Shown here in pieces: positions 2 through 5,531 of a stretch of 5,541 nucleotides of DNA. Source of the DNA: a virus (lineage: Duplodnaviria; Heunggongvirae; Uroviricota; Caudoviricetes). The stretch lies in the IMG/VR virus record IMGVR_UViG_2579778899_000001, positions 1 through 5,541 of that record. One strand, given 5' to 3'. A model generated the notes under the pieces. That model was not told the origin of the DNA. It was given only the letters and a program-made list of their open reading frames with translations, and searched no databases. A program made the translations under genes and the position numbers. Each line of letters starts with the position of its first letter. Positions within the stretch are counted from its first letter, which is position 1.

Positions 2-154
2 ATCAGCCTGATGCTGACCGAGCGAACGCTGGTCAGTGAGGTGGACGGCGCACTGCATGTGAAGAATATCCCGGAACCCCCGCCGCCGGAGCCGGTCACC
101 CGCCCGATGGAGCTTTATATCAATGGCGAACTGGTGAGCAAGTGGGATGAATGA
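2..154 (+). CDS. 3' end of a tail completion protein gene (gpR-like), 5'-truncated by the window edge
   Basis: Frame 2 is open from the window start to TGA at 152-154 (…PEPPPPEPVTRPMELYINGELVSKWDE*). High-GC codon usage matches the downstream structural genes. Its stop overlaps the start of the next gene (ATGAATGA), as expected for coupled late genes. Assignment to gpR rests on synteny with P2 (R precedes S), not on recognised sequence. Confidence 0.5.
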   Translation: MSLMLTERTLVSEVDGALHVKNIPEPPPPEPVTRPMELYINGELVSKWDE

Positions 155-599
155 GTTTAAGCGTTTTGAAGACCGGCTGACCGGACTGATTGAGTCGCTG
201 TCACCGTCAGGGCGTCGGCGGCTGAGTGCAGAGCTGGCGAAGCGTCTGCGGCAGAGTCAGCAGCGTCGGGTGATGGCACAGAAAGCCCCGGACGGCACAC
301 CCTACGCGCCACGCCAGCAGCAGAGCGCCAGAAAAAAGACCGGTCGTGTTAAGCGAAAAATGTTTGCGAAACTTATCACCAGTCGTTTTTTGCATATCCG
401 CGCCAGCCCGGAACAGGCATCAATGGAATTTTACGGCGGGAAGTCGCCGAAAATCGCCAGTGTGCATCAGTTCGGTCTGTCGGAAGAAACCCGGAAAGAC
501 GGTAAGAAAATTGATTATCCGGCGCGTCCTCTGCTCAGCTTTACCGGTGAGGATGTGCAGATGATTGAAGAGATTATCCTGACTCACCTTGAGCGTTAG
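147..599 (+). CDS. S: tail completion / virion morphogenesis protein gpS
   Basis: 150-aa ORF, the size I recall for P2 gpS. The basic N-terminal region (RRRLSAELAKRLRQSQQRRV) and overall sequence look like the P2 gpS family. The start overlaps the upstream stop by 8 nt. GC-rich coding composition. Confidence 0.8.
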   Translation: MNEFKRFEDRLTGLIESLSPSGRRRLSAELAKRLRQSQQRRVMAQKAPDGTPYAPRQQQSARKKTGRVKRKMFAKLITSRFLHIRASPEQASMEFYGGKSPKIASVHQFGLSEETRKDGKKIDYPARPLLSFTGEDVQMIEEIILTHLER

Positions 600-629
600 T
601 TTTATCCAGGCAGAGGCTGATGCGCAATT

Positions 630-664
630 AAACATTGAGCGGCCATGCTGGTCGCTCAATGTTT
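630..664. terminator. Perfect inverted repeat (12-bp stem AAACATTGAGCG / CGCTCAATGTTT, 11-nt loop) between convergent genes; candidate bidirectional terminator
   Basis: Read directly: 630-641 is the exact reverse complement of 653-664. It lies 31 nt past the gpS stop and 7 nt past the minus-strand cargo gene stop. T-runs follow on both strands (TTTAATT on minus, TTTATGAGTGATTTTTATTT on plus), but neither is a clean U-tract. Confidence 0.4.
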
Positions 665-670
665 AGAGGT

Positions 671-1456
671 TTATGAGTGATTTTTATTTGATGCTTTGTA
701 TTCTAAAACCTTCTTATTGGCGTAAAAGAATTTTGTATATGACAGGAATATAACCAGACCTGAAGTGAAATAGACGAGGGATAGTATTAATAATGCTTTT
801 TTGTGACTGTTATTATCTTTAATCTCCTGGCTTAACCATTCGGAGTCCTCCTCGTTTAGCTGTAAGAGCTTATTGCAGGCGATCTCAGGAAGTGTGTCTT
901 TTATAAATACGTTTTGCAGTCTCTTGCAATCGGCAAGGCTATAAGTTTTATTAAATTCAACTGCTTTATTTTTGAAGGATAAAAGAACTTTGTCACTATA
1001 AACATAGTACATCATGTTTTTATATGGTATGCCTATGGCATCCCTTACTATAACGGATTGTTCGTTGTGTATGTAACATGCGAGGAGAATGTAAAAAATA
1101 CTGGCCAGAATTACAATTATTGTTTTAATTATGTGTGGTGGTTTTGTTATGTCACCCCAGATGCGAGTAAGGAAAAAATACGATGTTTTTAGTTTTCCAT
1201 CAATCAGTCCCTGCTGTATCATTCTCACATTTTCAATGCCTGATACATTGATTCCATTAATTATTTTAAATAGTTGAATGTCGCGCCACTTGCGGTCAAG
1301 TCTTTTTAATTTTTTGTCTGAATATCCAAAATTGAAATAATGTGCAATAAGCCTCATAAGGTTACTTTTACCAAAGCTAAAAAATGCTAATACTGCAAAG
1401 CTACAAAGGAAAAAAACGATTAGCCCCCACACATTAGTCACATTATAGCTGACCAT
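671..1456 (-). CDS. hypothetical 261-aa integral membrane protein on an AT-rich cargo island in the S-V intergenic position (orf30-like position of P2); function unknown
   Basis: Uninterrupted 786-nt ORF filling the whole AT-rich island. Strong SD (AAGGAG) about 6 nt upstream of the ATG at 1456 on the minus strand. AT-biased codons with K/N/I/F/Y-rich protein. Three hydrophobic segments of about 20 aa (residues ~9-28, ~108-129, ~221-240; nt ~1373-1432, ~1070-1135, ~737-796) separated by Lys/Arg-rich loops. No catalytic motif recognised. Confidence 0.8.
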   Translation of the reverse strand: MVSYNVTNVWGLIVFFLCSFAVLAFFSFGKSNLMRLIAHYFNFGYSDKKLKRLDRKWRDIQLFKIINGINVSGIENVRMIQQGLIDGKLKTSYFFLTRIWGDITKPPHIIKTIIVILASIFYILLACYIHNEQSVIVRDAIGIPYKNMMYYVYSDKVLLSFKNKAVEFNKTYSLADCKRLQNVFIKDTLPEIACNKLLQLNEEDSEWLSQEIKDNNSHKKALLILSLVYFTSGLVIFLSYTKFFYANKKVLEYKASNKNHS

Positions 1457-1539
1457 TACGCTCTCCTTGAATGTTGTCTGGTAGTTCTACAAATGAATCC
1501 AGATAGCATAACTTTTATATATTGTGCAATCTCACATGC
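1457..1539. promoter_or_regulatory. 83-bp divergent control region between the cargo gene (-) and gpV (+); contains the cargo gene RBS and presumably the late tail-operon promoter (P_V equivalent)
   Basis: Cargo RBS (CTCCTT on plus = AAGGAG on minus) at 1462-1467. Candidate -10 TATATT at 1518-1523 on the plus strand upstream of the V ATG at 1540, with no good -35, as typical for activator-dependent late promoters. Imperfect TGT…ACA dyad at 1472-1491 (spacing 14 or 11, not the N12 I recall for Ogr-type sites). Minus-strand TTGCAC (-35-like, plus coordinates 1523-1528) could serve the cargo gene. All calls are by eye. Confidence 0.3.
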
Positions 1540-2181
1540 ATGAACACTCTCGCAAATATTCAGGAACTCGCGCGCGCACTGCGCAACATGATTCGCACCG
1601 GCATTATCGTCGAAACCGACCTTAACGCCGGTCGCTGCCGTGTGCAGACCGGCGGCATGTGCACTGACTGGCTTCAGTGGCTGACCCATCGTGCCGGTCG
1701 TTCGCGCACATGGTGGGCACCTTCCGTGGGGGAGCAGGTGCTGATTCTGGCCGTGGGCGGTGAACTCGACACGGCGTTCGTTCTGCCGGGGATTTATTCC
1801 GGCGATAACCCCGCGCCGTCTGCGTCGGCGGATGCCCTGCATATCCGTTTCCCTGACGGGGCGGTGATTGAATATGAACCCGAAACCAGTGCACTCACGG
1901 TAAGCGGAATTAAAACAGCCAGCGTGACGGCTTCTGATTCTGTTACTGCCACGGTGCCGGTGGTCATGGTGAAAGCATCAACCCGCGTCACCCTGGACAC
2001 ACCGGAGGTGGTCTGCACCAACAGGCTGATTACCGGCACGCTGGAAGTGCAGAAGGGCGGGAAGATGCACGGCAACATCGAGCATACCGACGGGAAATTC
2101 ACTTCTAACGGCGTTCAGGTGGATGACCACGGTCACGGTGGTGTTAAGTCAGGTGACAACTGGACGCAGGGGACAAAATGA
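1540..2181 (+). CDS. V: baseplate central spike protein gpV
   Basis: The ORF track opens at a TTG at 1522; the first ATG is at 1540 (MNTLANIQELARAL…), giving 213 aa, close to the ~211 aa I recall for P2 gpV. His-rich C-terminal apex (…HGNIEHTDG…DDHGHGG…) is typical of spike tips. The stop overlaps the W start (ATGA). Confidence 0.8.
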   Translation: MNTLANIQELARALRNMIRTGIIVETDLNAGRCRVQTGGMCTDWLQWLTHRAGRSRTWWAPSVGEQVLILAVGGELDTAFVLPGIYSGDNPAPSASADALHIRFPDGAVIEYEPETSALTVSGIKTASVTASDSVTATVPVVMVKASTRVTLDTPEVVCTNRLITGTLEVQKGGKMHGNIEHTDGKFTSNGVQVDDHGHGGVKSGDNWTQGTK

Positions 2182-3971: not shown

Positions 3972-5531
3972 ATGAGCACAAAATTCAAAACCGTTATCAC
4001 CACTGCCGGTGCAGCAAAGCTGGCAGCGGCAACCGCACCGGGAGGGCGGAAGGTCAACATTACCACGATGGCCGTCGGGGATGGCGGTGGTAAATTGCCT
4101 GTCCCGGATGCCGGACAGACCGGGCTTATCCACGAAGTCTGGCGACATGCGCTGAACAAAATCAGCCAGGACAAACGAAACAGTAATTATATTATCGCAG
4201 AGCTGGTTATTCCGCCGGAGGTGGGCGGTTTCTGGATGCGTGAACTTGGCCTGTACGATGATGCGGGAACGCTAATTGCCGTGGCGAACATGGCCGAAAG
4301 TTATAAGCCAGCCCTTGCCGAAGGCTCAGGGCGTTCGCAGACCTGCCGCATGGTCATCATCGTCAGCAGTGTGGCCTCAGTGGAGCTGACCATTGACACC
4401 ACAACGGTGATGGCAACGCAGGATTACGTTGATGACAAAATTGCAGAACATGAACAGTCACGACGTCACCCTGACGCCTCGCTGACCGCAAAAGGTTTTA
4501 CTCAGTTAAGCAGTGCGACCAACAGCACGTCTGAAACACTGGCCGCAACGCCGAAAGCGGTAAAGGCCGCGTATGACCTTGCTAACGGGAAATATACCGC
4601 ACAGGACGCCACCATAGCGCGAAAAGGCCTTGTCCAGCTCAGTAGTGCGACCAACAGCACGTCTGAAACGCTCGCCGCAACACCAAAAGCCGTTAAGACG
4701 GTAATGGATGAAACGAACAAGAAAGCGCCATTAAACAGCCCTGCACTGACCGGAACGCCAACGACGCCAACTGCGCGACAGGGAACGAATAATACTCAGA
4801 TCGCAAACACGGCTTTCGTTATGGCCGCGATTGCCGCCCTTGTAGACTCGTCGCCTGACGCACTGAATACGCTGAACGAGCTGGCGGCGGCGCTGGGCAA
4901 TGACCCGAATTTTGCTACCACCATGACTAATGCGCTTGCGGGTAAGCAACCGAAAGATGCCACTTTGACGGCGCTGGCGGGGCTTGCTACTGCGGCAGAC
5001 AGGTTTCCGTATTTTACGGGGAATGATGTTGCCAGCCTGGCGACCCTGACAAAAGTCGGGCGGGATATTCTGGCTAAATCGACCGTTGCCGCCGTTATCG
5101 AATATCTCGGTTTACAGGAAACGGTAAACCGAGCCGGGAACGCCGTGCAAAAAAATGGCGATACCTTGTCCGGTGGACTTACTTTTGAAAACGACTCAAT
5201 CCTTGCCTGGATTCGAAATACTGACTGGGCGAAGATTGGATTTAAAAATGATGCCGATGGTGACACTGATTCATACATGTGGTTTGAAACGGGGGATAAC
5301 GGCAATGAATATTTCAAATGGAGAAGTCGCCAGAGCACCACAACAAAAGACCTGATGAATCTTAAATGGGATGCTCTGTATGTTCTTGTTAAAGCCCTTT
5401 TCAGCAGTGAAGTAAAAATATCTACAGTCAATGCGCTGAGGATATTTAATTCATCTTTTGGTGCTATTTTTCGCCGTTTGCGTATTTTCATGAAAGGAGA
5501 TCACTCAATAACTTCCATCGAGATCGGGTAA
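3972..5531 (+). CDS. H: tail fibre protein gpH-like (519 aa), with a compositionally distinct low-GC C-terminal portion
   Basis: SD GAGGA upstream of the ATG at 3972. Two copies of the tail-fibre repeat motif QLSSATNSTSETLAATPKAVK. Ala/Thr/Asn-rich shaft-like sequence. A conserved-looking block (WAKIGFKNDADGDTDSYMWFETGDNGNEYFKW) is followed by an AT-rich terminal segment. Shorter than the ~669 aa I recall for P2 H. Confidence 0.75.
   Translation: MSTKFKTVITTAGAAKLAAATAPGGRKVNITTMAVGDGGGKLPVPDAGQTGLIHEVWRHALNKISQDKRNSNYIIAELVIPPEVGGFWMRELGLYDDAGTLIAVANMAESYKPALAEGSGRSQTCRMVIIVSSVASVELTIDTTTVMATQDYVDDKIAEHEQSRRHPDASLTAKGFTQLSSATNSTSETLAATPKAVKAAYDLANGKYTAQDATIARKGLVQLSSATNSTSETLAATPKAVKTVMDETNKKAPLNSPALTGTPTTPTARQGTNNTQIANTAFVMAAIAALVDSSPDALNTLNELAAALGNDPNFATTMTNALAGKQPKDATLTALAGLATAADRFPYFTGNDVASLATLTKVGRDILAKSTVAAVIEYLGLQETVNRAGNAVQKNGDTLSGGLTFENDSILAWIRNTDWAKIGFKNDADGDTDSYMWFETGDNGNEYFKWRSRQSTTTKDLMNLKWDALYVLVKALFSSEVKISTVNALRIFNSSFGAIFRRLRIFMKGDHSITSIEIG
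4505..4697 (+). repeat. Imperfect direct repeat (about 60 nt per copy, 132-nt period) inside the tail-fibre gene, encoding two identical 19-aa fibre-repeat motifs
   Basis: Copies at ~4505-4565 and ~4637-4697 (AGTGCGACCAACAGCACGTCTGAAAC…). Amino-acid sequence is identical (SSATNSTSETLAATPKAVK), with mostly synonymous nucleotide differences. Confidence 0.7.

Follow-up and report, generated by a model that had tools for sequence, protein, structure and literature searches.

A variable gap between the late-operon genes S and V of P2-like phages, occupied by the AT-rich orf30 block

The stretch of DNA analyzed here, referred to below as the window (5541 bases), is part of the late region of a P2-like phage. 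Its gene order is the end of R, S, a minus-strand open reading frame (ORF) designated orf30, V, W, J, I, and H. S closes the O late operon of P2, and V opens the V operon; the two genes form the conserved left and right flanks of the segment from 600 to 1539, which is the exact gap from the S stop codon to the V start codon. Bases 1 to 2096 show 98% identity with positions 8770 to 10865 of bacteriophage P2 (accession AF063097). The P2 counterpart of the gap lies at 9368 to 10307, and the gap measures 940 bp in both phages. The features of the locus are listed in Table 1.

Table 1. Features at and around the S/V gap, in window coordinates
Feature	Position	Strand	Remarks
Gene S, tail completion	147-599	+	Pfam Phage_tail_S, E = 1.4e-42; P2 annotation
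Inverted repeat	arms 629-645 and 649-665		17 pairs, 3-nt loop; putative O-operon terminator in the P2 annotation
orf30, AT-rich cargo gene	671-1456	-	261 codons; 99.2% identical to P2 Orf30
Shine-Dalgarno sequence AAGGAG of orf30	1463-1468	-	6 nt before the ATG; read from the sequence
Ogr/delta activator site of pV	1471-1498	+	identical to P2 10239-10266
Half-sites of pV	TGT 1475-1477, ACA 1489-1491		invariant among 23 alleles
pV core, reaching the annotated transcription start	1499-1539	+	end of the swapped block
Gene V, baseplate spike	1540-2181	+	Pfam Phage_base_V and Phage_spike

The P2 record annotates a "putative rho-independent terminator for O operon" at 9397 to 9433 (window 629 to 665), orf30 on the minus strand with the remark "nonessential," and a pV "activator binding site" at 10239 to 10266 (window 1471 to 1498). 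It puts the transcription start of the V operon on the first base of the V ATG. The hairpin and the activator site are identical in the window, and the orf30 region as a whole differs from that of P2 by point differences only, so that near-identical sequence is found at the position of the P2 orf30 locus between S and V. Differences between the two phages are seen elsewhere, namely, in the 3' end of V and in the tail-fiber gene H. H comprises 519 codons in the window, compared to 669 in P2, and its 3' end (5101 to 5531) has a GC content of 0.415, compared to 0.555 in the rest of the gene; the receptor-binding end of H has probably been exchanged. A direct repeat in H at 4480 to 4720 encodes ...QLSSATNSTSETLAATPKAVK... 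twice, according to the ORF translation.

The base composition sets the gap apart from its flanks. The GC content is 0.545 in S (0.487 in the last 150 nt), 0.479 at 600 to 670, 0.337 in orf30, 0.361 at 1457 to 1539, and 0.589 in V. The island as a whole shows a GC content of 0.35, compared to 0.55 to 0.59 in the flanks and 0.55 to 0.6 in the rest of the phage. A two-change-point maximum-likelihood fit of the GC content over bases 1 to 2200 places the changes at ∼655 and 1562, with a gain of ∼62 log-likelihood units over a single composition, and confirms the low-GC island described in the first-pass annotation of this DNA. That annotation had the GC content drop just after the S stop and recover just before the V start. 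The right edge is indeed found no more than ∼20 nt from the V ATG. The left drop is sharp as well, but it lies at ∼655 to 665, where the hairpin ends and the orf30 stop is located, ∼60 nt past the S stop; the bases from 600 to 665 have the same GC content as the 3' end of S.

The junctions of the block are defined by alignment with Yersinia phage L-413C and Escherichia phage 899. In these phages, as in fiAA91-ss, pro483, and others, orf30 is absent and S and V are separated by a gap of 66 bp. Similarity ends at 600 to 601, two bases past the S stop (after TAG TT), and sets in again precisely with the V ATG; 64 bases of the 66-bp gap are unrelated to the 938 bases of the window. Since homology breaks off at these two points, the hairpin, orf30, and pV all lie inside the exchanged segment. 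Judged from the alignments, they form one exchanged block, in which the whole spacer has been replaced in place of an insertion into an older spacer. The island outlined earlier from composition thereby obtains exact edges, the S stop plus two bases and the V ATG. The low-GC segment is a swappable, nonancestral block: close relatives carry unrelated gaps at the same place, so that the refuting condition named in the first-pass annotation, a colinear segment without junction variability in all relatives, does not apply.

The extent of this variation was determined in a survey of 80 IMG/VR loci with a gpS at least 97% identical to that of the window, one of which has no V on its stretch. An empty 66-bp gap with a GC content of about 0.6 is the most frequent form (47/80 loci), and one further locus has an empty gap of 61 bp (GC content of 0.59). 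The 940-bp allele with orf30 is found at 29 loci besides the window, with a GC content of 0.34 to 0.37. Gaps of 1040 bp (two loci; GC content of 0.33 to 0.34) and 1256 bp (four loci; GC content of 0.34) each contain one unrelated minus-strand ORF, neither of which matches a Pfam or PADLOC model. An allele of 1305 bp, again with unrelated AT-rich cargo, comes from one Escherichia locus of the species-level survey described below, where S is again at least 97% identical. At least five other alleles of the S/V gap thus occur among close relatives. An apparent 918-bp allele (L022) was an artifact caused by the masking of bases in V as N; it is included in the count of 940-bp alleles. A different ORF at the S/V site has also been described for phage R18C (PMC6823313).

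The alleles are unrelated in sequence except for a TTGTG/C motif 61 to 69 nt before the V ATG, which lies at 61 to 66 nt in all of them but the 1256-bp allele. The 1040-bp allele (L050) shares its first bases, TTGTGCCATT at 4454 to 4463, with the empty 66-bp allele, and a second copy of TTGTGCC lies at the activator site that it carries near V (∼5428 to 5436); this looks like an insertion by short-homology recombination beside the activator site. The flanks show 94 to 100% identity regardless of the allele between them, with a nucleotide identity of 96 to 100% for S in all alleles. This is the pattern expected if the block is exchanged among phages via homologous recombination in the conserved genes S and V. 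The 3' third of V (window 1940 to 2160, nucleotides 401 to 620 of V) exists in two types with ∼80% identity, which assort independently of the S/V allele. The 3' end of V is a second recombination module directly beside the island.

Among 5426 complete E. coli genomes, 1576 carry a P2-type S gene and 464 the orf30 island, which is always chromosomal; no relative of Orf30 was found on any plasmid. In the E. coli B derivative with the accession NZ_CP117044.1, a defective P2 remnant (L090) comprises a truncated S and V-W-J together with an orf30 allele that is intact and 92% identical. In E. coli B/BL21 the locus is WP_000490543.1. Beyond this species, PSP3 and Klebsiella phage 4LV2017 show empty S/V gaps of 68 bp, Salmonella phage SEN8 has a block of 1034 bp with a GC content of 0.37 and a minus-strand ORF, and Burkholderia phage Menos carries a minus-strand methylase at this site. 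A species-level survey (L091 to L170) includes 72 loci with both S and V, of which 24 have empty gaps of 53 to 76 bp and 48 are occupied. In 45 of the 48 occupied gaps the GC content is 0.32 to 0.47, compared to 0.5 to 0.63 in the flanks. The cargo spans 578 to 3608 bp and is found in either orientation, with 25 gaps having their largest ORF on the minus strand and 20 on the plus strand. These numbers rule out the rule that the cargo is always antisense, which the alleles of the P2 group and SEN8 had suggested; the antisense layout is typical of the P2 group and no general rule.

These data also bear on the direction of the change. The low-GC segment might be ancestral to P2-like phages and the 66-bp gap a secondary deletion; what the 66-bp and 940-bp alleles have in common is limited to the bases beside the coding sequences, and an exact deletion could leave the same picture. 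This reading is extremely improbable. The 66-bp gap is no subset of the 940-bp sequence but contains its own activator dyad and a GC-rich hairpin. Empty gaps with a backbone-like GC content occur in distant genera (PSP3, 4LV2017, and the 24 species-level loci), the occupied gaps hold many unrelated cargos, and the GC content of the cargo is 0.34, in contrast to 0.55 to 0.6 in the rest of the phage.

The left part of the block is dominated by the inverted repeat. The first-pass annotation described it as a perfect hairpin bounding the island; the hairpin is strong, with 13 perfect pairs, but one of the 17 pairs is a G.T pair. The stem contains a GC-rich core of 9 bp. The folded RNA has an energy of −27.1 kcal/mol (z = −6.5) on the plus strand and −21.3 kcal/mol (z = −6.0) on the minus strand, and none of 200 shuffled sequences matched its stability. 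Intrinsic terminators consist of a GC-rich stem-loop directly followed by a U-rich tract. The tails of the hairpin, AAUGUUUAG on the plus strand and AAUGUUUAAUU on the minus strand, are U-rich in part only, and a consensus scan for terminators does not call the hairpin, with a weak U-tract on both strands. The efficiency of termination is therefore uncertain. Where the S and orf30 transcripts converge, the hairpin is a candidate for an intrinsic terminator acting in both directions. Support for a terminator role comes from the other cargo alleles, where hairpins of unrelated sequence occupy the equivalent place between the cargo stop and S. In the 1040-bp allele this is a perfect stem of 10 bp, and the 1256-bp allele shows AAAAGGCCA-GTTAT-TGGCCTTTT, a textbook two-way terminator of A-tract, stem, and T-tract. 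The hairpin is not present in the empty 66-bp allele. Among 23 distinct 940-bp alleles, 4 of its 37 sites vary.

The proposal that this structure stops the late transcript ending in S agrees with the P2 annotation of a putative O-operon terminator and is weakened by the poor U-tract. The further proposal that the cargo gene is shielded from read-through is partly moot: transcripts reading through from S are antisense to orf30 and cannot express it. The hairpin would instead be relevant to transcription collision and antisense RNA. Alternatively, it may be no terminator at all and instead have been left behind by, or have served as a recognition site for, the process of cargo insertion, for example as a recombination site or the end of a mobile element. 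Its position at the left end of the swapped block and its lack of a good U-tract fit this idea, and the duplication of the short motif TTGTGCC at both ends of the 1040-bp allele is a hint of illegitimate recombination. Such an origin is nevertheless very unlikely, as the other alleles have hairpins of unrelated sequence, one of them a classical two-way terminator, and the block contains no recombinase or transposase gene. A search of Rfam gave nothing beyond a sub-threshold match of a generic hairpin with a microRNA model, which was dismissed.

The right-hand part of the block comprises the 83 bp between the ATG of orf30 (1456, minus strand) and that of V (1540). The earlier description of this part as a short divergent control region is correct in that it lies between two diverging start codons; it consists chiefly of the essential late promoter pV, with the Ogr site and the core, and is itself part of the swapped block. 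Sequence identity with the annotated P2 site assigns pV to the Ogr/delta-dependent late promoters. The consensus of P2 late promoters is given as TGT-N12-ACA, centered ∼55 nt upstream of the start (PMC3931495, citing Christie and Calendar 1985 and Julien and Calendar 1995). The dyad in the window at 1475 to 1491 is TGT-N11-ACA, the literal spacing being N11 or N14 in comparison to N12, and the dyads of pO and pF of P2 are likewise imperfect. The center of the annotated pV site is 55.5 nt from the V ATG, which is also the annotated start; for pO, pP, pV, and pF of P2, the annotated centers lie about 55 to 59 nt from the annotated starts.

TGT and ACA half-sites separated by 10 to 12 bases are centered 55.5 to 57.5 nt before the V ATG in the 940-bp, 66-bp, and 1040-bp alleles. 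Many relatives of the Klebsiella and Salmonella types have dyads at exactly 55.5 nt as well, with or without cargo in the gap. By this comparison, every allele appears to bring a positionally equivalent pV of different sequence. Dyads with the full TGT-N12-ACA consensus, exactly 55.5 nt before the V ATG, occur in several genera (L088, L089, L155, L158, L167, L169, and L170). None of the alleles contains a Shine-Dalgarno sequence before the V ATG. Together with the P2 transcription start annotated on the V ATG, this suggests a leaderless V mRNA, and such an mRNA would account for the return of homology at precisely the ATG.

Within the 940-bp allele, positions 1491 to 1536 are identical in all 23 distinct sequences. 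Variable sites amount to 19.7% in orf30, 8.5% in the left noncoding part, and 6.0% in the right noncoding part; the noncoding ends may be kept constant either by selection or by recent recombination.

The sequence of orf30 indicates a real gene. The frame of 261 codons is intact, without indels or stop codons, in the 23 alleles, whose DNA differs by up to 12%, and the ratio of nonsynonymous to synonymous substitutions (dN/dS) is 0.40 to 0.49. The strong Shine-Dalgarno sequence becomes GAGGAG in divergent alleles, still a ribosome-binding sequence. Hydrophobic segments of 19 residues at 9 to 27, 109 to 127, and 221 to 239 predict a membrane protein with three helices. Orf30 matches phrog_2407, a family without assigned function, and shows no Pfam match and no meaningful NCBIfam match. 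The PADLOC defense models recognize no family in Orf30 or in the proteins of the 1040-bp and 1256-bp alleles. A structure model of moderate confidence (pLDDT of 69.6) gave no informative match in a fold search. Among 5.8 billion proteins, relatives of Orf30 form five clusters at 90% identity, four of them with 80 to 98% identity to Orf30 and one with 40%. The last is found at the contig end of Enterobacter sp. CPE_E222 (L085, 1 to 788), the sole distant relative, where it adjoins a gene for an outer-membrane beta-barrel protein and other chromosomal genes, with no P2-like prophage visible around it.

P2 carries the AT-rich cargo genes old, tin, and fun(Z), which serve in the exclusion of other phages or the defense against them. 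By analogy with these genes, the best guess for Orf30 is a role in exclusion or defense at the level of the membrane.

As orf30 is antisense to both late operons, its expression, if it is expressed at all, is INDEPENDENTLY, from a promoter of its own. A sigma-70 scan of the minus strand from 1457 to 1539 found no orf30 promoter reaching 9 of 12 consensus matches, and a promoter-prediction tool and a relaxed scan of the minus strand from 1440 to 1640, covering the 83-bp region and the first 100 nt of V, gave no convincing candidate. The best one, GTGAGA-19-TATGCT, stays below 9 of 12; a consensus scan may miss a real promoter. Any orf30 promoter would overlap the stretch from 1499 to 1539 or lie inside V, and a minus-strand start near 1470 to 1530, as proposed earlier, is possible but gains no support from these scans. 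A divergent Ogr-dependent promoter using the shared pV site, as in pP/pO, was rejected, since its start would fall near 1429, inside orf30.

Expression of orf30 from its own promoter in the lysogen is plausible by analogy with another cargo locus. The Z/fun locus of P2 (L084, 15639 to 17628) shows the same layout, with a putative terminator of the upstream V late operon, the AT-rich minus-strand gene fun(Z), an Ogr site, and the start of the next late promoter, pF. A comparable gene at this locus is neaT of the P2-like prophage of CFT073, with a GC content of ∼30% and antisense to tail genes; in the lysogen, its own upstream region drives its expression (PMC3573123). The locus differs from that of orf30 in being another inter-operon gap (G/FI) with unrelated cargo, and fun(Z) and neaT have known phenotypes, in contrast to Orf30. 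Both late-region cargo genes of P2 lie in gaps between operons.

The first-pass annotation also pointed to silencing or countersilencing of the island by H-NS. Nine of 16 loose matches of the H-NS nucleation motif lie inside the island, with a total no higher than composition predicts; silencing is a conjecture compatible with the AT-richness of the island. It forms part of a further reading, in which orf30 is a silent passenger without a dedicated promoter, kept quiet by H-NS or a similar protein in a block that is maintained for the O-operon terminator and pV. The negative scans of the minus strand for a consensus promoter, the higher conservation of the noncoding ends relative to the gene, the fairly relaxed dN/dS of orf30, and a composition suited to H-NS binding are in line with such a passenger. 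The reading is quite unlikely all the same, because the frame has kept exactly its length without stops or indels across alleles up to 12% apart with a dN/dS clearly below 1, and the strong Shine-Dalgarno sequence is retained. The empty 66-bp allele further shows that the phage needs neither the terminator at 629 to 665 nor the 940-bp version of pV.

The block resembles the known classes of phage cargo in part. A moron is an extra gene, equipped with a promoter and a terminator of its own, that separates two genes lying side by side in relatives. Like a moron, the orf30 block occurs in some phages and is missing from others in which S and V adjoin, is of foreign composition (GC content of 0.35, compared to 0.55 to 0.59), and is nonessential according to the P2 annotation. 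A candidate for its own terminator is the strong hairpin at the orf30 stop (z = −6), whose U-tract is weak and which the consensus scan does not call. A promoter of its own was not recognized in the consensus scans. Unlike a moron, the block replaces the entire spacer including pV, leaving no intact ancestral spacer around it.

The hotspot of old and tin next to cos in P2 is likewise a small locus between conserved genes, whose AT-rich accessory genes also show a high turnover (Rousset et al. 2022, PMC9122126). It differs in containing recognized defense systems, whereas the three S/V cargo proteins compared with the PADLOC models match none. That study does not name the S/V site as a hotspot, and recent surveys of P2 hotspots and defense genes concentrate on other P2 loci. 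The orf30 locus has been described as one of three loci of horizontal acquisition in P2-like phages, together with the TO region and the Z region (PMC3091744).

Taken jointly for identity, block replacement, and mechanism, the best explanation, and one that is probable, is that the segment from 600 to 1539 is the orf30 allele of a variable inter-operon gap between S and V of P2-like phages. The block is a self-contained unit of 940 bp of foreign composition with a hairpin, orf30 on the opposite strand, and its own pV, with the V ATG as its right end. In the mechanism proposed for it, the hairpin would end both converging transcripts, the late O-operon RNA coming from the S side and the orf30 RNA coming from the V side, and this two-way termination would lead to less antisense RNA and fewer polymerase collisions. 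In the presence of Ogr, pV would restart late transcription of V-W-J-I-H-G. orf30 would be read from a weak host-type promoter overlapping pV or the 5' end of V, which would be active without Ogr, i.e., in the lysogen. Orf30 may then give the lysogen a nonessential function at the membrane, most plausibly, by analogy, the exclusion of or defense against other phages.

A more far-reaching version can be drawn up, although it is rather improbable. The S/V gap would be a built-in cargo slot that ends at the start of a leaderless V mRNA, and each cassette would bring pV and a terminator. In the P2 group, the promoter of the antisense cargo would overlap pV, so that Ogr switches the cargo off late, as a toggle between lysogeny and lysis, and Orf30 would be a new membrane-bound exclusion or defense protein.

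The orf30 island, the putative terminator, and the activator site of pV are already known, and the GenBank annotation of this island in P2 dates from the 1990s. The additions made here are modest: the whole spacer including the late promoter is swapped as a unit from the S stop to the V ATG, and AT-rich cargo is found at the S/V site in about two thirds of P2-like prophages of different species. As the cargo proteins encountered here are without known function, the slot could be mined for new genes of lysogenic conversion or antiphage activity.
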